This document shows positions 1,900 through 16,060 of a DNA stretch of 24,000 nucleotides, one piece after another (the stretch's first letter is position 1; each line of letters begins with the position of its first letter). Where the stretch lies: contig JANYJS010000102.1 of assembly GCA_025361765.1 (NCBI GenBank), forward strand, positions 11,166 through 35,165, given 5' to 3'. The translations under genes were made by a program, and so were the position numbers. This DNA comes from Bacillota bacterium. Its GTDB lineage: Bacteria; Bacillota; Clostridia; Peptostreptococcales; Anaerovoracaceae. The notes under the pieces were generated by a model that saw nothing but the letters and a program-made list of their open reading frames with translations, was not told the DNA's origin and did not search any database.

Positions 1900-2968
1900 C
1901 GCAATTTACCAAAATAGAATTCAAAAGGTTAAAACAGCCGCAAATGAAAAGAATGTCAAATCATTTTGGATTACGAAGCCAGAAAACAAGTTTTATGTTT
2001 CCGGTTTTCAATCATCTAATTATTTTATTTTGCTCACTGAAGACAGGAATTATTTGTTGACTGATTTCCGCTATATCGAAAGCGCCAGTCGTCTAAAAGA
2101 TACTTTTGAGATTGTTTTGATTTCAAATGAATTTACGCCTTGTGACTTTTTAAGGGATCATGGGGAAATTGGCCTTGGGATTGAATATAAAAGCATCACC
2201 TTTGATTTTTATAATGACATTATAGAGAAATCGGCCATAAAGGAAGTGCTTCCTGCGGACAATATCATTGAAAAAATTAGAATGATCAAAGAACCTGAAG
2301 AGCTCTTAAAAATCAAACAAGCTGCAGAGATAGCAAATCAGGGATTTTACCATATGTTGAATTATATTGAAACTGGTTTAACAGAAAAAGAAATCGCGTT
2401 TGAACTTGAATTTTTCATGAAAAGAAATGGCGCAGATGACCTGGCTTTTGACTCAATTGTCGCATCTGGGGAAAGAGGCTCCTTTCCACATGCAATGCCA
2501 ACGGACAGAAAAATTCAAAAGGGCGAATTCATTACTCTTGATTTTGGCGCAAAGGTTCAGGGATACTGTTCAGATATGACACGTACAATTGGCATTGGTC
2601 CATTAAGCGCCAAGCAAAAAGACATATATGCTTTGGTTTTGGAAGCGCAAATAAAATCTCTTTCTCAGCTTAAGGTTGGCCTCAAAACCTCAGATATCGA
2701 TAAAATTGCAAGGACTATTATAACCGATGCCGGTTATGGAGCCTATTTTGGTCATGGTCTTGGACATGGTGTTGGTCTTGAAATTCATGAAGCACCAACT
2801 TTGAATCCCTCAAGCGCTGAAGTTCTTGACCATAATATGGTTGTCACTATAGAGCCTGGCATCTATTTGCCTGGCGATTTTGGCCTTAGAATCGAAGACT
2901 TGGCAGTTGTTACGAATTCTGATATAATCACTCTGTCATCGGTTGAAAAAGAATTAATCATTCTTTAA
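1886..2968 (+). CDS. M24B family Xaa-Pro aminopeptidase/dipeptidase
   Basis: Creatinase-like N-domain plus a pita-bread fold, with metal ligands in DFGA...D...HGLGHGVGLEIHE...EPG...RIED. TTG start at 1886 lies 8 nt after GGGGAGG. It sits directly upstream of efp, as in Bacillus (yqhT-efp). Confidence 0.85.
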   Translation: MIKTNAIYQNRIQKVKTAANEKNVKSFWITKPENKFYVSGFQSSNYFILLTEDRNYLLTDFRYIESASRLKDTFEIVLISNEFTPCDFLRDHGEIGLGIEYKSITFDFYNDIIEKSAIKEVLPADNIIEKIRMIKEPEELLKIKQAAEIANQGFYHMLNYIETGLTEKEIAFELEFFMKRNGADDLAFDSIVASGERGSFPHAMPTDRKIQKGEFITLDFGAKVQGYCSDMTRTIGIGPLSAKQKDIYALVLEAQIKSLSQLKVGLKTSDIDKIARTIITDAGYGAYFGHGLGHGVGLEIHEAPTLNPSSAEVLDHNMVVTIEPGIYLPGDFGLRIEDLAVVTNSDIITLSSVEKELIIL

Positions 2969-3000
2969 GATAGTAAATAATTTAGTCGGAGGTATAAAAA

Positions 3001-5403: not shown

Positions 5404-6651
5404 ATGGGAAAAATAGAGCTACTCGCCCCAGCTGGAGATCTTGAAAAGCTTAAAATAGCCATTGATTATGGCGCGGATGCTGTGTATTTTGGTGGCGAGA
5501 TGTTTGGTCTGCGTTCTGGCGCAAAAAATTTTACAATTGAAGATATTCGCGATGGCGTCGACTATACCCACAAATATGGGCGGAAGATTTATATGGCTAT
5601 CAATATATTTGCCCACAATGAGGATATTCACCTTTTGGAAGATTATCTTTTGAGTCTTAAAGGGATTCCAATAGATGCCTTTATTGTATCAGATCCTGGT
5701 ATTTATTTGTCCATAAAGGCTAAGCTTCCAGAAGCTGAAATTCATTTGAGTACTCAGGCAAACACGACCAATTATAAAGCTGCAGAGTTCTGGCACAGTC
5801 AGGGCATTAAACGCATTGTACTGGCCAGAGAATTATCTCTTGATGAAATCACTGAGCTTCGTGTCAACACATCACCTCAACTTGAAATAGAAGCGTTCGT
5901 TCAGGGTGCCATGTGCATCTCGTATTCAGGCAGATGTCTCATGAGCAATATCATGACAGATCGGGATGCAAACAGGGGAGAATGTTCACACCCATGCCGA
6001 TGGCAGTATCACTTAGTTGAAGAAAAAAGGCCAGGAGAGTATTTCCCTATATTTGAAGATGAACGCGGTAGCTACGTCTTTAATTCAAAAGATCTATGTA
6101 TGCTGGAATTCATACCGGAGCTCATCAATGCTGGGTTGACTTCGGCTAAAATAGAAGGGCGGATGAAAAGTGTTTTCTATGTTGCGACTGTTGTTGGGGC
6201 ATATCGTAAAGCTATAGATAGTTATTACCAAAATCCAGAATCCTATCGATTTGACCAAAATCTCTTGACTGAGCTTAAAAAGGTGAGTCATAGAAATTTC
6301 ACAACTGGATTTTACTTTAATAAACCATCAAATGAAGATCAAAATTATCAAACCAGCAGTTATACGAGAGAATATGATTTTCTTGGCATTGTAAAGTCTT
6401 ATGACGACGAAAATAGGCTTGCCACTATTGAGCAAAGAAATAGAATTTTTGTCGGTGATCAGATTGAAATTATTGGCCCTTATACGGATTATTTCGACCA
6501 GACAGTAGAAATGATGCTTAATCCAGAAGGTGAACATATAGATTCAGCGCCCCATGCTCAGCAAATAATCCAAATAAAAATGAACAAACCCGTAAAGGAA
6601 AATTTCATGTTAAGAAAGCTTCACGTGAAGGAGGTTCACAATGAACAGTAA
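5404..6651 (+). CDS. Peptidase U32 family protein (YrrO/TrhP-like Fe-S protein; candidate O2-independent tRNA hydroxylase)
   Basis: U32 N-terminus MGKIELLAPAGDLEKLKIAIDYGADAVYFGG. A four-Cys motif C171-x6-C178-x15-C194-x3-C198 (nt 5914-5997) matches the Fe-S motif reported for U32 hydroxylases. Confidence 0.85.
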   Translation: MGKIELLAPAGDLEKLKIAIDYGADAVYFGGEMFGLRSGAKNFTIEDIRDGVDYTHKYGRKIYMAINIFAHNEDIHLLEDYLLSLKGIPIDAFIVSDPGIYLSIKAKLPEAEIHLSTQANTTNYKAAEFWHSQGIKRIVLARELSLDEITELRVNTSPQLEIEAFVQGAMCISYSGRCLMSNIMTDRDANRGECSHPCRWQYHLVEEKRPGEYFPIFEDERGSYVFNSKDLCMLEFIPELINAGLTSAKIEGRMKSVFYVATVVGAYRKAIDSYYQNPESYRFDQNLLTELKKVSHRNFTTGFYFNKPSNEDQNYQTSSYTREYDFLGIVKSYDDENRLATIEQRNRIFVGDQIEIIGPYTDYFDQTVEMMLNPEGEHIDSAPHAQQIIQIKMNKPVKENFMLRKLHVKEVHNEQ

Positions 6652-8158
6652 TGATGACATTAAAATCGAAGAAATTATTAATTCCGACAAACTTCAATAT
6701 CATGAAAAAAGAGCCAATCTTGCAAGAGAAGCTGAAAATCTTCTTAGCTATGTTGATGTGAGCGATCAAGTAAAAAGTGCCATGAAGTCCGGCATCCTTC
6801 ACGATATGAATGAGGGGAATAGACCTTATAGGCCAAGATATATTCTTCCTGATTATAAAAAATTTCTCGAGCAAGGCAGCGCTTATCTTAATATTGAACC
6901 ACCAAAGGATTTTTATGAAGCAGTGAATGCACTGTTGATTCTTTACCGTTATGTCCCTTCTATAACGGGTTATCCTGTTTATGTAGGACAGATTGATGAC
7001 TGTCTTGAACCCTTTGCCGATACAGTTACACCAATTGAGCTTGAGAAACTGATGCGCATGCTCTTAATCAATATTGATCGTACTTTACCCAGCGCTTTTG
7101 TGCATATGAATATTGGCCCCAAAGAAACGAGAGTAGGAAGACTCGTTATTCAACTCGAACGCGAGTTGAAAAAGACGATCCCGAACGTATCCTTAAAATA
7201 CGATCCGGATATCACGCCAGATGACTTCGCAAAGTATGCCATAGAATCAGCGCTGGATGTCATTAAGCCTTACTTTGTCAATCATAGACTCATGTCTTCA
7301 CAGCTCGGGGATGACTATGGTGTTGTCAGTTGTTATAACACGCTTAGAATAGGCGGTGGAGCGCATACCCTATGCCGGATAAATTTAAAGGAAATCTCAA
7401 AATCCGCAGAGAACTATAATGATTTCAAAGAAAACAAGTTGAAAGATGCCGTGATTGCATTAGCAGAATTGACAAATGCAAAGACAAAATATCTTGTTGA
7501 AAAATCTCGCTTTTTCGAGTCTAGTTTCCTTGCTAACGAAGGGATTATTGATTTAGAAAAATTTACGACTATGCCAGCAGTCTATGGCTTGTATGAATGC
7601 GTTGAAATTTTATCCGGAGAAAAAATGGGTCATTCCGAGATGGCAAACAGTATGGCAGAAGAAATCGTAAAATTATTCTATGATTACATTAAATCTGAAC
7701 CAGCAGTATATTGCGGCGGTACCGAGGGTAAACATGGCGTGCATGCCCAAAGCAATATAGACACAGATGTTGACGTTACGCCTGGTGTGCGAATTAAGTA
7801 TGGCGAAGAGCCTGGTGTTTTCGACCATATGCTCTTATCCAGCAAACTGCACAAATATTTTGATACAGGCTGTAGTGATATCTATGTTTTTGAAGAGACA
7901 GCTAAGGGCAATATCGATGGCATGCTCGAAATTATCAAAGGTGCTATTAAAAACGGAATCCGAATTTTATCAGTCAACTGTGAAAGTTCGGAATTTATAA
8001 GGATCACCGGATATTTAGTCAAGAAAAAAGATATAGAGCGATATTTTAATGGGGGTTTACTGCGAGAGGACTCTGTTGTATTAGGCGCCGAATCATTGAT
8101 GCCAGGGCATTTATTGGATAGAAAGGTCAAAGGACTTAATGGAAGCGTCAGTAAATAG
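6641..8158 (+). CDS. yjjI: Short glycyl radical enzyme, YjjI family-like (function unknown)
   Basis: 505 aa. A glycyl-radical-like C-terminal motif FIRITGYLV places Gly457 at nt 8009-8011, and a candidate thiyl Cys231 (VVSCYN) lies at 7331-7333. A GRE activase follows immediately with a 20-nt overlap. RBS GAAGGAGG precedes ATG 6641. The family call is from recollection of YjjI and has not been searched. Confidence 0.7.
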   Translation: MNSNDDIKIEEIINSDKLQYHEKRANLAREAENLLSYVDVSDQVKSAMKSGILHDMNEGNRPYRPRYILPDYKKFLEQGSAYLNIEPPKDFYEAVNALLILYRYVPSITGYPVYVGQIDDCLEPFADTVTPIELEKLMRMLLINIDRTLPSAFVHMNIGPKETRVGRLVIQLERELKKTIPNVSLKYDPDITPDDFAKYAIESALDVIKPYFVNHRLMSSQLGDDYGVVSCYNTLRIGGGAHTLCRINLKEISKSAENYNDFKENKLKDAVIALAELTNAKTKYLVEKSRFFESSFLANEGIIDLEKFTTMPAVYGLYECVEILSGEKMGHSEMANSMAEEIVKLFYDYIKSEPAVYCGGTEGKHGVHAQSNIDTDVDVTPGVRIKYGEEPGVFDHMLLSSKLHKYFDTGCSDIYVFEETAKGNIDGMLEIIKGAIKNGIRILSVNCESSEFIRITGYLVKKKDIERYFNGGLLREDSVVLGAESLMPGHLLDRKVKGLNGSVSK

Positions 8159-8861
8159 AATTATCCAATCTTCATTGGTAGATGGTCCTGGTAGCAGAAC
8201 TGTCATATTTATGCAAGGTTGCAACATGTCCTGTCTTTATTGCCATAACCCTGAAACCCAAAATGCAAGCCCAAAAGCAAAGCATTATAGCTTGGAAGAG
8301 CTCTTTGATTTAATCGAAAAACATCAGGATTTCATCGAAGGCGTTACATTTTCAGGCGGCGAATGCACCCTTCAGCATGAGTTTATTATCGCATTCTATA
8401 AACTACTTCATGAGCGCACTAAACTGACTTTGTTCCTTGATACTAATGGCCTAGTATCAAGCGACATAATGATTGATTTAATAAATCATTCTGACGGCCT
8501 TATGATTGATTTAAAGGCTTTTAGCCAAGATTGCCATCGTGCGTTAACCTATACCGACAATAGCGCTGTGAAGGAGAATATTAGGCTAGCCGCACAGAGT
8601 GGAAAATTGCATGAAGTACGTTTAACCCTCGTCGAAGATTTTAATGATGATCCTGATGAACTTAGCGCCTATTTCGATTTTGTCTTAGCTTTGCCGGGAG
8701 ATACAAGACTGAAGATCATTCCATACAGTCCATTCGGTGTCAAGGGCAGTTTCGGCCATAAGAGAGCGTATCCAAAAGAAAAATACGACTTGCTTGTTGC
8801 AATGGGGCAGCGCATATTAAAAGACAGAGTTCTAAAAGTCTGGTATAATTGGAGGAAATAA
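8139..8861 (+). CDS. yjjW: Glycyl radical enzyme activating protein (radical SAM, YjjW/PflA-like)
   Basis: Activase N-terminal signature VDGPGSRTVIFMQGCNMSCLYCHNPET, with CX3CX2C at nt 8220-8243. At 240 aa it has no extra ferredoxin insert. Confidence 0.85.
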   Translation: MEASVNRIIQSSLVDGPGSRTVIFMQGCNMSCLYCHNPETQNASPKAKHYSLEELFDLIEKHQDFIEGVTFSGGECTLQHEFIIAFYKLLHERTKLTLFLDTNGLVSSDIMIDLINHSDGLMIDLKAFSQDCHRALTYTDNSAVKENIRLAAQSGKLHEVRLTLVEDFNDDPDELSAYFDFVLALPGDTRLKIIPYSPFGVKGSFGHKRAYPKEKYDLLVAMGQRILKDRVLKVWYNWRK

Positions 8862-8862
8862 T

Positions 8863-9222
8863 ATGAATAATGAGGAAAAAATCGGGAGTGTTAAAATAGC
8901 CGATGACGTAATAGCCACTTGTGCAATGAATGCAACAACTAAAACAGAAGGCGTTGCCGATTTGAGCGCTGGAATAACCGATACCATTTCTAAAAACATT
9001 TTGGGTAAAACATCGCTTTCAAAAGGGATAAAAATCCTTCAAGAAGAGCAGGGGATTACTGTTGATGTCCATATTGTTGTCGACTATGGTGTAAAAATAC
9101 CAGAAGTTGCGTGGAATGTTCAAGAGAATGTTAAAAAGGAAATTGAAAGCATAACTGGTTTAAAAATCAAATCGGTCAATATCTTTGTTCAAGGGGTTAG
9201 CTTTGAAAAGAATGCAGAATAG
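8863..9222 (+). CDS. Asp23/Gls24 family envelope stress protein
   Basis: 119 aa (GSVKIADDVIATCAMNATTKTEGVADL...). It lies directly upstream of nusB, as Bacillus yqhY does. RBS GGAGGA is present. Confidence 0.85.
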   Translation: MNNEEKIGSVKIADDVIATCAMNATTKTEGVADLSAGITDTISKNILGKTSLSKGIKILQEEQGITVDVHIVVDYGVKIPEVAWNVQENVKKEIESITGLKIKSVNIFVQGVSFEKNAE

Positions 9223-9246
9223 AAGAATTTGGAGGGCACAATTCAT

Positions 9247-9651
9247 ATGAAAAGGTCAGAAGCAAGGGAATTAGTTATGCAGCTTCTATATCAAATGAAT
9301 ATTCAAAAAGATTATGGCGATGCCATTAAAGAGCGATTCGTTTTGGAGTACTTACCAAAATCTAATCAAACTGCTTATTTTGATGATTCACTGTCGACAG
9401 TACTGAATAACTTGGAACAAATTGATCAAGAGATTGAAGCATGTAGCGATAACTGGAAGATTAACCGGATTGACCAGGTAGATTTAGCCATATTAAGACT
9501 TTCTATAGCAGAGCTTTTGTTCATGGAGAATATCCCTGATTCTGCCTCTATTAATGAAGCAGTGGAATTAGCAAAGAAATATGGCGGATCCAATTCAGGC
9601 AAATTTATCAATGGAGTTCTCGGTAAGATTTCAAGAGGAAAGAATGCTTAA
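9247..9651 (+). CDS. nusB: Transcription antitermination factor NusB
   Basis: [16 protein letters not shown] is a typical NusB N-terminus. I prefer ATG 9247, preceded by GGAGGG at 9232-9237, over the TTG at 9229 used in the track. Confidence 0.9.
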
Positions 9652-10615
9652 AAAAGACTATTATCTCGGACTGGACACGAGCAATTACACCACTTCGATT
9701 GCTATTGTTGATTCCGATTTTAATGTGATAGCGGATCAGAGAAGATCTTTACGGGTTAAGGATGGCAGCCGCGGCCTTAGGCAATCGGAGGCCCTTTTTC
9801 AGCATAACGAAAATATACCGGATATGTTAGAAAGTATCTTTAAAATAATTGAAAAAAGCCAAATAAATGCTATTGGCGTAAGCAATAAGCCAAGACCCTT
9901 AGAGGGTTCTTACATGCCTGTTTTTAACGCTGGTGTAAACTATGCTAAAGTGATTAGCTCTGTTTTAAACTGCCCGTTATATTCATTTTCTCATCAAGAA
10001 GGGCATATTGAGGCGGCGCTCTCATCCTCACTTTTTAAGGAAAGTCCTAAATTTATTACTTTACACCTATCTGGTGGAACTAGTGAAGTTTTGTCCATTG
10101 ACAATTCCAGCTTCGGCTATGGAATCAAAGTTATCGGAGGGAGTAAAGATATTTCCTTTGGTCAGTTGATTGACCGAGTAGGCGTTGCGCTTTCGCATCC
10201 ATTTCCTTGCGGCGAAATTTTGGATCAGATTGCCAATAATTACCGGGGCAAAAATTTGCATTTATTGACCCCGATTTGTGTTGATGGATTGGTCTTTAAT
10301 CTTTCAGGGCTTGAAAGCCAATGCCAGAGAATCATCGCATCTCATTGTGACGCCGAAGCGCTCATTTATGAGTTGTTCTATATAATAAGTCAGTCTTTAT
10401 GTCAAATTGCCAAAAATTCAGTGGGTGAGAACCATAACAATAAAATTCTTTTTGTTGGTGGCGTTTCTGCAAGTAAATTTGTAAGGAACTATATTATAAA
10501 TTACTTTAAGGGTAAAGAAATCATACCGGTGTTCGGTGATCCAACATTTTCTACTGATAATGCAATTGGATGCGCCATTCTTTGTGCGAAATCCTTTATT
10601 GGATATCAAGGCTGA
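9644..10615 (+). CDS. Divergent Kae1/TsaD-like (peptidase M22 / ASKHA fold) protein, function unknown
   Basis: [17 protein letters not shown] resembles the TsaD phosphate-1 motif (GIETSCDET), and [11 protein letters not shown] resembles the TsaD HxxGH metal motif. The likely start is ATG 9644 (MLKKDYY), which overlaps the nusB stop by 8 nt. The track start at 9581 lies inside nusB. Confidence 0.6.
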
Positions 10616-12066: not shown

Positions 12067-12963
12067 ATGAACAACATGGAGTACGCTCGGCTTAAGGCAT
12101 TCGTTGATTTGCATTTACTTGACTTCTTGCCAGAGGTTGACAATAATAGTATTACGATTTATGATTCGATGAAATATAGTCTAGAAGCTGGAGGAAAAAG
12201 GCTTAGACCCATACTGCTTCTTGAATCCTATAACTTTTGCGGAGAGAATATGTATTTGGCACTTCCTTATGCCTGTGCCGTTGAGTATATTCACACCTAT
12301 TCTCTCATTCATGATGATTTACCAGCTCTGGACAATGATGATCTTCGTAGGGGTAAACCCACCAATCACAAGATTTATGGGGAAGCAATCGCCATCATTG
12401 CCGGAGATGGGCTTTTGAATTCTGCTTTTGAGCTTATGAATAAAGATATGCTTTTGTATCTAGATGATCCTATAAAACTAAAACGCCGTATTAAAGCATC
12501 CTATGAAATATCAAAGGGAGCCGGTTGTAAAGGAATGATTGCAGGGCAGGTGGCTGATTTAGAGGCGGTCAATAAGAATTGTTCAAAAGAATTGCTTGAT
12601 TATATTCATGTCAATAAAACAGGTGCTTTGATTGTTGCATCGGTGCGTGCGGGAGCGCATCTAGGCGGAGCATCAGATAATATCCTGCATAGCTTAACGC
12701 TTTATGCGGAAAATATAGGTCTTGCCTTTCAAATTGTAGATGATATTCTCGATCTTTATGGCAGCGAAGTTGAAATGGGAAAGACTGTTGGCAGTGACTC
12801 CAAATTAAACAAGGCGACCTATCCTGCTTTGTATGGGCTAGACGCTTCTATGACAAAACTTAAGGAACTTCACAAGGCTGCTATCACTGCACTTGAACCT
12901 TATGGTAAGAGGGCAGATTTTCTCATTGAACTTGCAAATGAATTGGCAATTCGTATAAAATAA
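12067..12963 (+). CDS. ispA: Farnesyl diphosphate synthase (polyprenyl synthetase)
   Basis: First Asp-rich motif HDDLPALDNDDLRRG, second Asp-rich motif VDDILD, and the GKRLRP motif. It follows xseAB as in Bacillus. Confidence 0.9.
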   Translation: MNNMEYARLKAFVDLHLLDFLPEVDNNSITIYDSMKYSLEAGGKRLRPILLLESYNFCGENMYLALPYACAVEYIHTYSLIHDDLPALDNDDLRRGKPTNHKIYGEAIAIIAGDGLLNSAFELMNKDMLLYLDDPIKLKRRIKASYEISKGAGCKGMIAGQVADLEAVNKNCSKELLDYIHVNKTGALIVASVRAGAHLGGASDNILHSLTLYAENIGLAFQIVDDILDLYGSEVEMGKTVGSDSKLNKATYPALYGLDASMTKLKELHKAAITALEPYGKRADFLIELANELAIRIK

Positions 12964-12972
12964 TGCTATAAT
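12943..12972 (+). promoter_or_regulatory. Candidate sigma-A promoter for the downstream large ncRNA
   Basis: TTGGCA (12943-12948), an 18-nt spacer, then an extended -10 TGcTATAAT (12964-12972). The predicted TSS near 12979-12980 coincides with the 5' arm of the RNA closing helix. The -35 lies inside the ispA 3' end. Confidence 0.5.
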
Positions 12973-12976
12973 AATT

Positions 12977-13545
12977 CGAGTGGCGCAGTATTCTAGTCAG
13001 AGATTGTTGTTTTTGAGGGCGGGGCTAAAAATCCGATAAAGGGCACATCGATGAAGCTCCTTGTATTTGCTGCCGACGCCCAGTCGGGGGTATTTACTGG
13101 GAGAAAGAAGGTCAGGGCGATCCATAATGGCATATGGGCGTGAACCCTGTCTTCGTGGAGGCTTAAGGCTTATGCTTTAAGTATAAACCTGAGAAGTTGC
13201 AAGCTAGCAGCTTTTCAGTGTAGCCTGCCTTGAGTGGATAAAGGGAATAACAGATTAGATTCTTGTAAGTTCACGGCCGGGACTTCCTGATAATTGCTGT
13301 TTGAAACTAGTCTGCAAAAGAGGCTGAGAAACAATTATACTGGTGGGGAAAACCCCTAGACTGTATCATAAGTATATCAAGGATTACAGTACAAGCTAAG
13401 TGGCAATCCAGTACTTCGTACGGTAACGACGGAGGCAATGATTTAAAGGGGAACCGCTGATGTGGCGACTAATCAGCATCGTTGTGGGAAATCCAACTGG
13501 ACCTAAGCAGTAAAGTTTACTTGATATACTGCCACTTGTCTATTT
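12977..13545 (+). ncRNA. ole: OLE (ornate, large, extremophilic) RNA
   Basis: A 596-nt ORF-free gap between ispA and a 4-TM protein gene, followed by dxs and tlyA, which is the published OLE locus architecture. G+C is locally elevated: 31/60 and 32/60 for 13021-13140 against 18/60 for 13561-13620. A 12-bp long-range helix joins 12977-12990 to 13527-13538, with many local hairpins inside. The ends are approximate. Confidence 0.8.
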
Positions 13546-13559
13546 TTAAAGGATATAAA

Positions 13560-14111
13560 ATGAAACTTAAAAAAAATAAAGCTTCCACAAAGGATCATAA
13601 ACAATGGGTGGTATTGATTACGTTTGCCGCCTTTCTTTTATCAGTATTTATGAGTTATTTTTCAAAAATTCTGCTGGATAGCACCGGAAGGTTTATTTCA
13701 TTTGCCATACTGATTTTCATCATTTTTTTAGGAATCTTTTTCGATGCTATTGGTGTCGCTGTGACTGTCGCCGATGAAAGACCATTTCATTCAATGGCTT
13801 CCGCAAAGGTAAAAAGTGCTTCAAGTTCCATATTTCTTATTCGAAACGCCAGTAAGGTATCAAATTTCTGCAATGATGTCATTGGTGATATTTGCGGTAT
13901 TATTAGTGGTACGTCAGCGGCTTATATTATTGTAAAAATGCAAGGGGACTATCCAGCCATAGATATGGCCATAGTTTCGATTATTTTGAGCGGTTTAATA
14001 GCCGCTTTAACAATTGGCGGGAAAGCCGCAGGTAAAGAATTTGCCATGAATTATCCAAAAGAAATAGTAACTGCAGCAGGCAAAATCATATCGATATTCG
14101 AGAAGAAATAA
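13560..14111 (+). CDS. oapA: OLE-associated protein A (small four-TM membrane protein)
   Basis: 183 aa from ATG 13560 (MKLKKNKAST...). Four hydrophobic segments are present: WVVLITFAAFLLSVFMSYF, FISFAILIFIIFLGIFFDAIGVAV, VIGDICGIISGTSAAYIIV and MAIVSIILSGLIAALTIGG. It lies immediately 3' of the OLE-like RNA and 5' of dxs. Confidence 0.75.
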   Translation: MKLKKNKASTKDHKQWVVLITFAAFLLSVFMSYFSKILLDSTGRFISFAILIFIIFLGIFFDAIGVAVTVADERPFHSMASAKVKSASSSIFLIRNASKVSNFCNDVIGDICGIISGTSAAYIIVKMQGDYPAIDMAIVSIILSGLIAALTIGGKAAGKEFAMNYPKEIVTAAGKIISIFEKK

Positions 14112-14182: not shown

Positions 14183-16060
14183 ATGAGCAAAAAAATATTG
14201 GAATATCATTTCCCAGAAGATTTAAAAACCATGTCTGACCATGAGCTTGGATTATTATCATATGAAATCAGAGATTTTCTAATAGATATTGTTTCTAAAA
14301 CTGGTGGCCACATTGCTTCTAATTTAGGCGTGGTTGAGCTTACTATAGCGCTTCATAAGGTTTATAACAGCCCAAGAGATAAAATCGTCTGGGACGTGGG
14401 TCATCAATCCTATACCCATAAGATTCTGACCGGAAGAGCTAAACAGTTTCATACTTTAAGGCAGCTTAATGGGCTTAGCGGATTTCCCAAAAGGCAAGAA
14501 AGCCCACATGATACTTTCGACTCTGGCCATAGCAGTAATTCAATATCAGTAGCCCTTGGCCTTGCTTGCGCTAGAGATATCAAAGGGGATCAAGAATCGA
14601 TTATAGCTGTAATAGGAGATGGGGCTCTCAGTGGTGGCGTCGCCTACGAAGCATTAAACAACGCTGGTCATTCAAAAGAGAATATGACCGTTATTTTAAA
14701 CGATAATGAAATGTCTATTAGTAGAAATTCAGGAGGCATGTCTTCACATCTTGGGAAACTTCGGGTGTCAAAAGAGTACAATGCGTTTAAAAAGCAACTC
14801 AAGAAAACCATTTCCGGTATCCCTATATTGGGCGATAGTCTTTATAGTGGTCTTGGGCATTTTAGAAATGCCATTAAATATGCCGTAGTTCCCGGAGTCA
14901 TTTTTGAAGAATTGGGTTTTAAGTATCTCGGACCTGTTGATGGCCATAACATACATGATTTGATTGAAGTATTCGAAATTTCCAAATTAGTCGAAGGGCC
15001 GATTTTAATCCATGTTGTTACAAAAAAAGGCAAAGGTTATACAACTGCCGAAAAAAGTCCTTCTAAATTTCACGGTGTAGGCCCATTCGACCCAGCTACC
15101 GGCGAAATGCACGATCAGTGCTCGGCAAAGGCCTATTCAACGATATTTGGCAATAAGTTGATTGAATTAGCGAATGAAGACCAAAGTATTGTTGCTATTA
15201 GTGCTGCTATGATTGAAGGAACTGGCCTCGAAAAATTTGCTGAGCGGTTTCCATTAAGGACTTTCGATGTTGCTATCGCGGAGCAGCATGCAGTTAGTTT
15301 TGCTGCCGGATTGGCATTAAACGGCTTAAAGCCAGTAGTGGCAATTTATTCGACTTTTTTGCAGCGCGCCTATGACGAAATTTTAATGGATGTTTGCCTG
15401 CAAAATCTACCCGTCATTTTTGCGATTGACCGTGCCGGAATTGTTGGTGCAGACGGAGAAACGCATCATGGTATTTTTGATTTGTCATTTCTCACTTCAA
15501 TGCCCAATATGACAGTCATGGCCCCAAAAGATGACAAAGAGCTTTCAGCCATGCTGGATTATGCGTTTAAATTAGGGACACCATGCGCAATAAGATATCC
15601 TCGCGGTAATATTGAAAATTTTGAAGGCAATGAGTGTGAAAACCCTATAAATGGATCATCGGAAATTTATAGATCTGGCACAGATGCTACGATCATTGCT
15701 GTGGGAAAAATGATGGCAAATGCAATTAAAGCCCTAGATTATATTGAGTTAAGAGGTAAGAGCGTTGAGCTTATCAATGCAAGATTTGTGAAACCCCTCG
15801 ATATCGCAACTATTATTAAAAGCGCTACTAAAACTAAAATTATTATTACTTTAGAAGATAATACGCTCTGCGGAGGTTTTAGCAGTAGCATTGCTTTGGC
15901 GATGGCAGAAAATCAAATCGAAGGTGTAAAGCTACATGCCTTTGGTTGGCCGGATAAATTCATTCAGCATGGAAGTATTTCTGAGCTCGAAAAAATATTT
16001 GGTCTCGATCCTATAAGTTTAGCTGATAAGGTGTGTGAAATTATTGAAGGAAAGAATTGA
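14183..16060 (+). CDS. dxs: 1-deoxy-D-xylulose-5-phosphate synthase
   Basis: 625 aa with GGHIASNLGVVELTIALH, the ThDP motif GDGALSGGVAYEALNNAG...NDN, and a transketolase-like C-terminal domain. Confidence 0.95.
   Translation: MSKKILEYHFPEDLKTMSDHELGLLSYEIRDFLIDIVSKTGGHIASNLGVVELTIALHKVYNSPRDKIVWDVGHQSYTHKILTGRAKQFHTLRQLNGLSGFPKRQESPHDTFDSGHSSNSISVALGLACARDIKGDQESIIAVIGDGALSGGVAYEALNNAGHSKENMTVILNDNEMSISRNSGGMSSHLGKLRVSKEYNAFKKQLKKTISGIPILGDSLYSGLGHFRNAIKYAVVPGVIFEELGFKYLGPVDGHNIHDLIEVFEISKLVEGPILIHVVTKKGKGYTTAEKSPSKFHGVGPFDPATGEMHDQCSAKAYSTIFGNKLIELANEDQSIVAISAAMIEGTGLEKFAERFPLRTFDVAIAEQHAVSFAAGLALNGLKPVVAIYSTFLQRAYDEILMDVCLQNLPVIFAIDRAGIVGADGETHHGIFDLSFLTSMPNMTVMAPKDDKELSAMLDYAFKLGTPCAIRYPRGNIENFEGNECENPINGSSEIYRSGTDATIIAVGKMMANAIKALDYIELRGKSVELINARFVKPLDIATIIKSATKTKIIITLEDNTLCGGFSSSIALAMAENQIEGVKLHAFGWPDKFIQHGSISELEKIFGLDPISLADKVCEIIEGKN

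Follow-up and report, generated by a model that had tools for sequence, protein, structure and literature searches.

The 596-nt gap between ispA and the next gene in the 24-kb stretch of DNA analyzed here (the window) almost certainly holds an OLE (ornate, large, extremophilic) RNA gene (12964-13551, + strand), and the reading frame that follows it (13560-14111) is, with the same near certainty, oapA. A search of the window with the Rfam covariance model RF01071 returned 12964-13551 (+) at 456.4 bits (E 3.5e-131), for a family gathering score of 50 bits. The match spans model positions 1-616 of 616, is not truncated and lies on the + strand only; the structured core runs from the start of helix P1 at 12977 to 13538. 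An earlier note on this DNA had called an OLE RNA locus, given the accession as RF01071 and proposed this search. The + strand match, which covers most of the gap, bears out both the call and the accession. A scan of the window at the Rfam gathering thresholds found no second family, riboswitches included. As an overall explanation, we hold it highly probable that the locus is an OLE RNA gene plus oapA, with the scheme of expression, architecture and mechanism set out below.

The class itself is known rather than new, as the earlier note had also held. OLE RNA was reportedly described by Puerta-Fernandez et al. in 2006, with H. halodurans, C. acetobutylicum and C. botulinum as representatives. 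A curated Rfam model exists for it, more than 700 species are on record as carrying it, and it ranks with the largest bacterial RNAs that still await a biochemical function. The present copy is a typical, ordinary member of the class at a typical locus.

The gap is bounded by the ispA stop codon (12961-12963) and by an ATG at 13560 with AAAGGA in front of it (13548-13553), and no ORF of 60 aa or more occurs on either strand in 12964-13481. These boundaries agree with those given earlier, and every string quoted at the time was found where it had been placed. The G+C counts for two 60-nt segments within the gap (31/60 and 32/60) were also right, whereas 13561-13620 contains 17/60 rather than 18/60. 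Overall, the OLE sequence has a G+C content of 44.2%, compared to 38.4% for the whole window. The + strand folds with a minimum free energy (MFE) of -196.6 kcal/mol (z = -5.65), and none of 100 shuffled sequences folds as well; the - strand gives a z of -0.31. The structure of the gap thus exceeds chance and is strand-specific. An RNA from the minus strand was rejected on this z-score together with the lack of any Rfam match on that strand.

The OLE sequence is 86.7% identical to that of its closest relative, the metagenome-assembled genome (MAG) L049 (ELA049), and about 71-72% identical to the OLEs of Marinisporobacter and Alkaliphilus. The nearest OLEs (from a Eubacteriales MAG, Marinisporobacter and Alkaliphilus), an OapA homolog labelled Anaerovoracaceae (59% identical) and the genes for a YjjI glycyl-radical enzyme and its activase within the window all agree with a host among the anaerobic Clostridia, without proving it. 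An exact OapA match is found on MAG GCA_043724625.1, and the same locus stands unannotated on public MAG contigs.

Covariation and architecture of the RNA

For comparison, 120 loci were retrieved with the 19-mer at 13038-13056; the H. halodurans genome is not among them. Two loci, from Streptomyces (L034) and TA06 (L118), proved to be chance 19-mer matches and were dropped from the set. The structure was tested on 108 OLE RNAs in a MAFFT alignment (A1), the kind of comparison that had been proposed earlier, and both conservation and covariation were found. Canonical pairs form in the present sequence at 128 of the 145 Rfam consensus pairs. Across the alignment, 87.0% of cells are paired versus 72.2% after shuffling, double changes occur at 140 of 173 pairs, and slid controls give 39-49%. 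The covariation score equals 0.466 versus 0.193 for shuffled alignments, with 0 of 500 shuffles as high and slid controls between 0.09 and 0.16. Of the roughly 570 nt, about one in four is invariant or nearly so across Bacillota, and the present sequence departs from none of the invariant or nearly invariant columns of A1. The consensus secondary structure forms here and covaries strongly in the relatives. Covariation further shows the architecture: P1, P2 and P3 join both ends, P3 encloses a 5' domain (P4-P9), and a separate 3' domain follows. These three helices are absent from the Rfam consensus structure and present in the published OLE model. All features described below lie on the + strand.

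P1 closes the whole RNA by pairing CGAGUGGC (12977-12984) with GCCACUUG (13531-13538). It is 97.2% paired (A1 columns 7-13 with 830-836), and both sides change at six of its seven pairs. C12984:G13531 appears as UA in 57, CG in 30 and UG in 16 of the 108 OLE RNAs. Only G12985 remains unpaired before P2, whose 5' strand (12986-12996) pairs with CUAGACUG (13356-13363) in two segments, CAG 12986-88 with CUG 13361-63 and UCUAG 12992-96 with CUAGA 13356-60. The segments are 99.7% and 100% paired, and the helix is fully formed in 107 of 108 sequences; U12992:A13360 is UA in 89, CG in 15 and UG in 4, and the CAG/CUG segment has rare double changes at all three pairs. The MFE structure of the window adopts the P2 pairing as well. 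The P2 5' strand contains a CUAG palindrome, at a location that the literature names as an OapA contact; OapA binds near P2 and P4a (PMC9723947, PMC12265935).

P3/P3.1, which encloses domain 1, joins AUUGUUGUUUUU (13003-13014) to AGAAACAAUUAU (13327-13338) over 12 positions with a single U.U mismatch; P3 plus P3.1 typically comprise 12 bp (PMC12265935). The inner eight pairs are 95.1% paired, with changes on both sides at seven of them. The outer four pairs (13003-06/13335-38) are poorly aligned in A1 and reach 48.9%, a low value that probably stems from alignment scatter in a gappy region.

Of seven helices proposed in the earlier note, the alignment leaves two unsupported. Its 12-bp closing helix stands in its outer 7-8 bp (12977-12984/13531-13538), which are P1, and fails in its inner part, CAGTA 12986-90 with TACTG 13527-31; the 2-nt bulge drawn between the two is not one, since C12984 pairs with G13531. 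All five inner pairs are possible in 17 of 108 sequences, three of them are unpaired in 57-61 of 108, and compensatory changes occur in 0, 1 or 2 of 108 sequences per pair. The segment is also mutually exclusive with P2 and with the covarying helix 13371-81/13520-30. The window MFE uses P1 (8 bp) and a GCAGU/ACUGU pairing. It could be argued that the pairing of the invariant 5' CAGUA with UACUG at the 3' end of the domain-2 closing helix, open to a minority of OLEs and combined with the compact form, is a lineage-specific conformational switch that frees the CUAG palindrome to which OapA would bind. Such a switch would extend P1 at the cost of P2 and four pairs of 13371-81/13520-30, and the 17 sequences able to form it include the present one and its closest relative. 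We consider a switch highly doubtful, since the pairing shows no covariation and the sequence's own MFE prefers P2.

The second proposal to fail is the hairpin CCCAGT/ACTGGG (13079-84/13096-101), which is complementary yet invariant and clashes with the covarying P5. It is 94.9% complementary, four of its six pairs depart solely by unpaired cells, and one pair alone has any double change (119:131, CG/UG with 3 UA). The hairpin was rejected because the basal pairs of P5 covary and GCCCA is the conserved L5.1 loop. The four remaining local hairpins (13345-56, 13160-82, 13113-17/13145-49 and 13456-61/13472-77) match the Rfam consensus structure.

The 5' domain opens with the P4 hairpin of the Rfam consensus (13018-13037; stem 13018-23/13032-37), which is 98.8% paired and carries the A-rich loop GCUAAAAA at 13024-31. 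This loop reads CCUAAAAA or GCUAAAAA in 105 of 108 sequences, and in the cryo-EM structure of Clostridium OLE the A-rich loop of P4 is the A-A dimer bridge (PMC12286853, PMC12265935). Downstream lies the invariant palindrome CAUCGAUG (13046-13053), inside the conserved block AAAGGGCACAUCGAUGAAG. Positions 13045-13052 (ACATCGAT) are identical in 108 of 108 sequences, in a set itself retrieved with the overlapping 19-mer, and every base of 13038-13056 is invariant in A1, the same 19-mer having been used for retrieval. Published descriptions state palindromes near P2 and P4a, with no sequences given (PMC12265935, PMC9723947). CAUCGAUG would be the P4a/J4a-5 palindrome, in the area where the OapC k-turn lies and OapA makes its second contact.

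P5/P5.1 (13057-13103; Rfam consensus) pairs 13057-77 with 13083-103 around the loop GCCCA (13078-82); it is 96.8% paired, 13 of 19 pairs change on both sides, and the loop is GCCCA in 104 of 108 sequences. P6 and P6.1 (13107-13154), likewise in the Rfam consensus, comprise 13107-17/13145-54 and 13122-26/13133-37 with the loop AUGGCA (13127-32). P6.1 is 98.5% paired, and its loop is ANGGCA in all 108 sequences; P5.1 and P6.1 are published as kissing loops (PMC12265935). P7, placed by the Rfam alignment, is a 20-nt hairpin (13162-13181) versus a family median of 46.5 nt, with 27 Rfam model positions replaced by 2 nt. Next comes a further Rfam consensus hairpin (13189-13218), which by helix order would be P8; variation or loss of P7 and P8 has been published (PMC12265935). 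The P9 arm (13227-13324; Rfam consensus) stacks four helices below the loop ACGGCCG (13273-79, with GGCC at 13275-78). GGCC recurs in each of the six commonest variants of this terminal loop, which together account for 67 of 108 sequences; six sequences lack the loop. The P9 palindrome forms a symmetric kissing loop, with covariation among GGCC, GAUC and AGCU (PMC12286853). Beyond P3, the small GGGG-AAAA-CCCC hairpin (13345-13356) retains its Rfam pairs 13345-47/13353-55, which are 99.1% paired with all three changing on both sides; C13356 belongs to P2.

The 3' domain (13371-13530) is closed by the 11-bp helix 13371-81/13520-30, which is 95.6% paired and changes on both sides at all 11 pairs, and it holds 13390-94/13508-12, P12.2, P13, P14 and P14.1. 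The last four, drawn as in the Rfam consensus, form a putative OapB-binding module (13407-13501). Within it, P12.2 (13407-12/13496-501) is 99.7% paired, P13 (13414-22/13427-34) 92.8%, P14 (13435-42/13478-85) 96.3% and P14.1 (13456-64/13469-77) 86.0%. P13 has the GNRA tetraloop GUAA (13423-26) and a single bulged nucleotide, U13419; P14.1 ends in the tetraloop GCGA (13465-68). A GNRA loop is present in P13 in at least 105 of 108 sequences and in P14.1 in 108 of 108. The P13 GNRA loop and a one-nucleotide bulge are the published determinants of OapB binding, and the helix names follow the same source (PMC7936274).

OapA, the promoter and the gene neighborhood

The gene at 13560-14111 (+) encodes a 183-aa membrane protein with four helices. 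Its ATG lies 21 nt past P1 and 6 nt after the ribosome-binding site (RBS) AAAGGA (13548-13553). A start at TTG 13482, which would yield a 209-aa ORF overlapping OLE, was rejected: homologs of about 183 aa fully cover the product of the ATG at 13560, and the RBS precedes 13560. An oapA homolog lies directly 3' of OLE at 99 of 102 loci, in line with the published ole-oapA tandem arrangement (PMC9723947). Hydrophobic segments are found at residues 17-35, 50-68, 107-125 and 134-152, and an AF2 model of moderate confidence (pLDDT 67.6, pTM 0.55) has long helices at 8-41, 44-70, 87-130 and 136-164. The protein contains a DxxxD motif, DVIGD at 106-110, with D106 and D110 invariant in 39 homologs; this motif is distinctive of OapA (PMC11332333). 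By these features, the protein qualifies as an OapA in the published sense.

The CNNM model PF01595 scores 18.0 bits (E 0.0024) against this OapA, below the Pfam gathering cut-off of 28.4, so the protein is not assigned to the CNNM family. No match was obtained with Pfam or NCBIfam at E 1e-3 or in a sequence search of the PDB. Foldseek ranks 1-4 are MtCorB structures (7M1T and 7M1U), with a probability of 0.98-1.00, a TM of about 0.52 and E 0.1-0.4; the same CNNM/CorB relationship has been published for H. halodurans OapA (PMC11332333). The present protein ends after its fourth helix, without a CBS pair and without a CorC domain.

Upstream, a predicted promoter of the sigma-70/sigma-A type (12943-12972, +) combines TTGGCA (12943-12948) and an 18-nt spacer with TGcTATAAT (12964-12972), an 11/12 consensus match with the TG of an extended -10. 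The 3' end of ispA carries its -35, and the closest relative has TGCTATAAT in common at this promoter. Promoter matches of at least 9/12 within 18 nt 5' of P1 occur at 78 of 111 OLE loci versus 5 of 85 in a control zone. In B. halodurans, OLE has been described as highly stable, as transcribed from a proximal promoter and as having its 5' ends where P1 begins (PMC3413148). This promoter, whose extended -10 ends at 12972, most likely drives transcription of the RNA. Transcription would then start around 12979-12980, at the start of P1, and drop the outermost two P1 pairs. Read-through from xseA-xseB-ispA probably also yields OLE. A search after OLE found no intrinsic terminator, so co-transcription of ole and oapA, followed by processing or stabilization of the core, is to be expected.

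The gene context named earlier (xseA, xseB, ispA, membrane protein, dxs, tlyA) was confirmed by Pfam and NCBIfam. Farnesyl diphosphate synthase, IspA (12067-12963, +), matches NF045485 with 334.9 bits for a cut-off of 275, and Dxs (14183-16060, +) matches TIGR00204 with 805.9 bits. In the comparative set, ispA lies directly upstream of OLE at 73 of the 95 loci with room for it, and dxs directly after oapA at 69 of 83. Neither oapB nor oapC is present in the window.

Proposed mechanism and competing explanations

The mechanism we propose is drawn from work on the OLE RNAs of H. halodurans and Clostridium. Two OLE RNAs would dimerize via the A-rich L4, the P5.1/P6.1 kissing loops and the P9 GGCC, all of which are intact in the present copy. 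OapA, expected to bind OLE RNA cooperatively in a 2:1 ratio, would bind palindromes near P2 and P4a and tether the RNA to, or possibly through, the membrane; the palindromes it contacts here may be the CUAG in P2 and CAUCGAUG. OapB would recognize the P13 GNRA loop and bulge, and OapC and bS21 would bind the P5-P6 region. The particle would be a regulator that responds to stress, namely alcohol, cold, excess Mg2+ and poor carbon sources. Its role would most likely be to control OapA, taken as a CNNM/CorB-like divalent-cation transporter without CBS and CorC regulatory domains. OLE RNA would thereby supply the regulatory module that these domains provide in MpfA/CorB. That OLE regulates transport by OapA is a tentative reading, argued from analogy, to which we give slightly less than an even chance.

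On the same identity, OLE could instead be mainly a ribozyme, for instance the nucleotide-second-messenger synthase that the Breaker laboratory is said to have speculated about, with OapA merely an anchor. We think this unlikely; it counts against a ribozyme that about 20 years of work have, to our knowledge, brought no report of catalysis by OLE, and no feature of the window bears on catalysis. In favor of a ribozyme, OLE is as large and as structurally complex as ribozymes typically are, its share of roughly 25% invariant nucleotides is typical of them as well (PMC12265935, PMC11332333), and many invariant unpaired blocks, such as AAAGGGCACAUCGAUGAAG and GUAGCCUGCCUUGAGUG, lack an assigned partner. 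However, in cryo-EM OLE is a dimeric scaffold whose protein-binding pockets are exposed (PMC12286853), and the anticorrelation of OapA with MpfA, together with their shared Mg2+ phenotypes, favors control of transport (PMC11332333). Published hypotheses on OLE function include a ribozyme, a transmembrane RNA and a 'bTOR' master regulator (PMC12265935).

Two further explanations do without a stable OLE particle. A long structured 5' leader could control oapA-dxs in cis, as a riboswitch or attenuator, and the layout lends itself to this: there is no terminator-like site between the RNA and oapA, the start codon comes just 21 nt after P1, and the RBS is immediately downstream of the RNA. These same features make co-transcription with oapA likely. 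Yet experiments on the OLE family have revealed an abundant, very stable and discrete RNA that binds OapA, OapB and OapC (PMC3413148, PMC9723947, PMC7936274). The invariant quarter of the RNA goes far beyond the needs of a leader, and neither a covarying terminator, anti-terminator or RBS-sequestering helix nor, in the Rfam scan, a riboswitch was found. We therefore judge a cis leader very improbable. The gap might also be a coding region in decay, or a spacer rich in G+C by chance, with fortuitous complementarity, a view that could draw on the two unsupported helices among the seven proposed. This view is already refuted by the RF01071 match and the covariation, and the strand-specific fold, the conserved promoter and gene order and the absence of ORFs of at least 60 aa in 12964-13481 also speak against it, leaving it a negligible chance.

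With these alternatives weighed, the OLE reading can be compared to known systems. Compared to the OLE family, the present copy matches over its full length and has all Rfam consensus helices plus P1, P2 and P3. Its conserved blocks are invariant; L4, the L5.1 GCCCA, the L6.1 AUGGCA and the P9 GGCC are intact, as are the P13 GNRA loop with its bulge and the P14.1 GCGA loop. It also shares the promoter abutting P1, oapA in tandem and the ispA/dxs/xseAB/tlyA neighborhood. It differs in its compactness, with 572 nt (12972 to 13543) versus a family median of 609 and a 7-nt linker in place of a small hairpin at Rfam positions 424-437. The short P7 and the missing small hairpin after P2 are common to its closest relative, and the compact form is within published variation (PMC12265935). 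Its host, too, sets it apart, being probably an uncultured anaerobe of the Clostridia type.

The protein resembles, by description, the OapA of H. halodurans (BH2780 type, WP_010898928.1), which is ole-adjacent, has a mass of about 20-21 kDa, four transmembrane (TM) segments and DxxxD, and shares the weak CNNM similarity and CorB-like fold. Relative to MpfA/CorB/CNNM (PF01595; 7M1T, 7M1U), the TM fold is alike, but the present OapA has four TM segments versus their three, lacks the CBS pair, CorC and the CNNM-type conserved proline and has DxxxD (PMC11332333). The GOLLD, ROOL and raiA motif RNAs are likewise large, highly structured and homo-oligomeric; their structures and contexts are unrelated, none has a dedicated membrane-protein partner, and none has an Rfam match in the window.

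As a discovery the locus carries little weight, OLE having been described in 2006 and the copy being typical, and for testing OLE function this instance offers no advantage over the existing model systems. Its value lies in annotation and in its form. Annotations should replace the 596-nt "gap" with ole and the downstream "hypothetical protein" with oapA. The RNA is among the shortest full-function-looking OLEs in the sample, with all dimerization and protein-binding motifs kept, and such a compact variant can suit structural work on the OLE 3' domain.

Identity of the RNA between ispA and oapA

A scan of the 24-kb window against Rfam returned no family other than the ornate, large, extremophilic (OLE) RNA (RF01071). 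The match covers 12964-13551 on the + strand, scores 456.4 bits (E = 3.5e-131) against a gathering score of 50 and spans model positions 1-616 of 616, so it is not truncated. When the consensus structure is projected on the window, 128 of its 145 pairs are Watson-Crick or G-U. An earlier note, made from the sequence alone, had read this locus as OLE, proposed this search and named the correct accession; the reading is supported by the Rfam match, covariation and gene context, except for two of its seven helices. OLE RNAs have been known since 2006 and are catalogued across Bacillota; this one is an ordinary example of the class.

The sequence bears out the boundaries in that note: ispA stops at 12963 (TAA, 12961-12963), and the next credible start is the ATG at 13560, which has an AAAGGA ribosome-binding site six bases 5'. 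The ORF listing agrees that 12964-13481 lacks ORFs of at least 60 aa on both strands, and each string that the note quoted occurs at its coordinates. Its G+C counts hold for 13021-13080 and 13081-13140, while 13561-13620 contains 17/60 rather than 18/60. Overall, the G+C content of the element is 44.2% versus 38.4% for the window. The predicted fold is well beyond chance on the + strand only (minimum free energy [MFE], -196.6 kcal/mol; z = -5.65; 0/100 shuffles as good), with a z of -0.31 on the - strand.

Covariation and helical architecture

Relatives were retrieved with the invariant 19-mer AAAGGGCACATCGATGAAG, searched for in a single genome of each species; at least 120 loci matched. Among the matches listed, 118 are real OLE loci; a Streptomyces contig (L034) and a candidate-division TA06 contig (L118) carry the 19-mer by chance and contain no OLE. 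The closest relative among these matches is L049, a Eubacteriales metagenome-assembled genome (MAG) with 86.7% identity across the whole RNA, followed by the OLE RNAs of Marinisporobacter, Alkaliphilus and Petromonas (~70-72%). Two genuine OLE-oapA loci lie on contigs labeled 'Succinivibrio sp.' (L079, CAVGTL010000054.1, 3209-4428) and 'Pseudomonas sp. ISL-84' (L100, JAGGRA010000014.1, 5996-7348). To our knowledge, OLE is confined to Bacillota, and these contigs are therefore probably mis-binned or contaminant.

From the matches listed, 108 full-length copies were aligned, and pairs were counted for the Rfam structure and three terminal helices outside the Rfam annotation. Paired cells amount to 87.0%, versus 72.2% in column shuffles, and the covariation score is 0.466 versus 0.193 (0/500 shuffles as high). 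When the 3' partners are slid by 1-3 columns, pairing falls to 39-49% and the covariation score to 0.09-0.16. The covariation anticipated for orthologous gaps is thus present, with changes on both sides in 140 of 173 pairs. It outlines an architecture in which P1-P3 join the ends, P4-P9 form a 5' domain and a separate domain lies 3'. Helix names beyond P1-P4, P12.2-P14.1 and the named loops were inferred from sequence order; all helices and motifs described here are on the + strand.

Four of the local hairpins proposed from the sequence (13345-13356, 13160-13182, 13113-13117/13145-13149 and 13456-13461/13472-13477) are consensus helices of the Rfam structure. The proposed 12-bp closing helix survives in its outer part, which is P1 (12977-12984 with 13531-13538; 97.2% paired, 6/7 pairs changing on both sides). 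Its 2-nt bulge does not, as C12984 pairs with G13531 instead (UA in 57 sequences, CG in 30, UG in 16). The inner segment, the invariant CAGTA (12986-12990) with TACTG (13527-13531), occupies alignment columns 15-19 with 825-830 and is not supported. At three of its five positions, 57-61 of the 108 sequences lack a pair, compensatory changes are nearly absent (0, 1 or 2 sequences per pair), and all five pairs can form in 17/108, including the window and L049. This pairing competes with P2 and with the helix that closes the 3' domain. P2 joins CAG (12986-12988) to CUG (13361-13363) and UCUAG (12992-12996) to CUAGA (13356-13360), and is 99.7-100% paired. In 15 sequences U12992:A13360 is replaced by C:G, and each of the three CAG/CUG pairs shows rare double changes. 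The 3' side of the inner segment belongs to the 11-bp 3'-domain helix (13371-13381/13520-13530), in which 11/11 pairs covary. The MFE structure of the window likewise contains P1 and P2-type pairing. Because it does not covary, the CAGUA/UACUG pairing is probably fortuitous; it might conceivably form as an alternative conformer of OLE.

The other helix that was not retained is the hairpin CCCAGT/ACTGGG (13079-13084/13096-13101): it cannot form together with P5, and the basal pairs of P5 covary. Although 94.9% of its cells are complementary, departures at four of the six pairs consist solely of unpaired cells, and a double change occurs at one pair only (columns 119:131, CG/UG with 3 UA). The invariant L5.1 loop bases CCCAG are complementary to the invariant P5 3' strand CUGGG in ~95% of OLE RNAs. 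P3 (13003-13014 with 13327-13338) comprises 12 positions with one U.U mismatch. Its inner eight pairs are 95.1% paired, with double changes at 7/8; the outer four are 48.9% paired and not supported by the alignment.

Functional motifs, promoter and gene neighborhood

All elements tied to function in the literature are present in the window RNA. These are the A-rich P4 loop GCUAAAAA (13024-13031), the invariant CAUCGAUG (13046-13053), the conserved P5.1 loop GCCCA (13078-13082), the P6.1 loop AUGGCA (13127-13132), the palindrome GGCC in the P9 terminal loop (13275-13278), the CUAG palindrome within P2, the GNRA tetraloop GUAA of P13 (13423-13426) with its single bulged U13419, and the P14.1 tetraloop GCGA (13465-13468). 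The P4, P5.1, P6.1 and P9 loops are reported as RNA dimerization bridges, with OapA contacts near P2 and P4a, OapB reading the P13 loop and bulge, and palindromes placed near P2 and P4a without their sequences (PMC12286853, PMC12265935, PMC9723947, PMC7936274); we infer that these palindromes are CUAG and CAUCGAUG. The RNA is compact, with 572 nt (12972 to 13543) versus a family median of 609. P7 (13162-13181) is a 20-nt hairpin, among the shortest in the sample (median, 46.5 nt; L049, 19 nt), and a 7-nt linker (13364-13370) stands in place of the small hairpin at model positions 424-437. Both traits are common to L049 and lie inside published variation.

A predicted extended -10 promoter (TTGGCA, 12943-12948; 18 nt; TGcTATAAT, 12964-12972; + strand; 11/12 match) ends four bases 5' of P1, and TGCTATAAT is also present in L049. 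Among the matches listed, 78/111 OLE loci have a promoter match of 9/12 or better no more than 18 nt 5' of P1; the figure is 5/85 for a control zone lying 100 nt upstream. For B. halodurans, a proximal promoter and RNA 5' ends at the beginning of P1 have been published (PMC3413148). No terminator-like site was found 3' of the OLE RNA, so co-transcription with oapA is likely.

Pfam and NCBIfam matches agree with the gene context described earlier (xseA, xseB, ispA, OLE, oapA, dxs, tlyA). Among the matches listed with room for the neighbor, 73 of 95 loci have ispA directly upstream of OLE, and 69 of 83 have dxs directly after oapA. The exact OapA protein is also encoded by an NCBI MAG contig (GCA_043724625.1, JAYSMP010000071.1) and a Logan assembly, both with the ispA-gap-oapA-dxs layout of the window. 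Gene callers leave the 596-nt gap (2405-3000 in the MAG contig) empty, and OLE is consequently missing from both annotations.

Several neighboring genes deserve mention. The tlyA ORF as listed (GTG, 16035) overlaps the dxs end by 26 nt (16035-16060), and its true start may lie further downstream. Between nusB and xseA, a + strand ORF (9581-10615) looks like a divergent TsaD/Kae1 paralog, with NCBIfam TsaD scores of 111-132 bits, far below the cut-offs of 208-296. Because it overlaps nusB (9229-9651) by 71 nt and its homology begins near residue 28, translation probably starts near 9650. A YjjI-like glycyl-radical enzyme (6641-8158) and its radical-SAM activase (8139-8861), both on the + strand, fit an anaerobic host. 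They are followed by an Asp23/YqhY family gene (8863-9222, +); yqhY is among the genes most often near ole and is linked to cell-wall stress (PMC12265935).

OapA and the proposed working of the particle

The 183-aa product of 13560-14111 gave no Pfam or NCBIfam match at E = 1e-3. We identify it as OapA because of its tandem position, four hydrophobic segments (17-35, 50-68, 107-125 and 134-152), DxxxD motif and sub-threshold CNNM/CorB likeness. Among the matches listed, 99 of the 102 loci giving a hit carry a homolog on the OLE strand, immediately 3' of the RNA. Such an arrangement defines oapA: the two genes are reported to "almost always reside in tandem" (PMC9723947). The DxxxD motif, distinctive of OapA (PMC11332333), is DVIGD (106-110), and both aspartates are invariant in 39 homologs. 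The CNNM family (PF01595) scores 18 bits (E = 0.0024), below its cut-off of 28.4. A moderately confident AlphaFold model (pLDDT, 67.6; pTM, 0.55) has as its four best PDB fold matches the archaeal CNNM protein MtCorB (7M1T, 7M1U; probability, 0.98-1.00; TM, ~0.52; E, 0.1-0.4). A CorB-like relationship has been published for H. halodurans OapA (PMC11332333), and public names of the homologs include "hypothetical", "CBS domain containing-hemolysin-like" and "CorB". The protein resembles CNNM transporters yet falls outside their family.

For this window, the analysis shows OLE identity, a covarying architecture, a predicted promoter of its own and a tandem oapA. By analogy with published work on other species, two OLE RNAs would dimerize via the L4, P5.1/P6.1 and P9 loops, and OapA would tether the dimer to, or possibly through, the membrane. 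OapB, OapC and bS21 would bind the RNA, and the particle would help cells with alcohols, cold, excess Mg2+ and poor carbon sources. Our preferred, tentative reading is that OLE would act as the regulatory module for a CNNM-like cation transporter without CBS or CorC domains. An undiscovered ribozyme activity is the main alternative and seems improbable.
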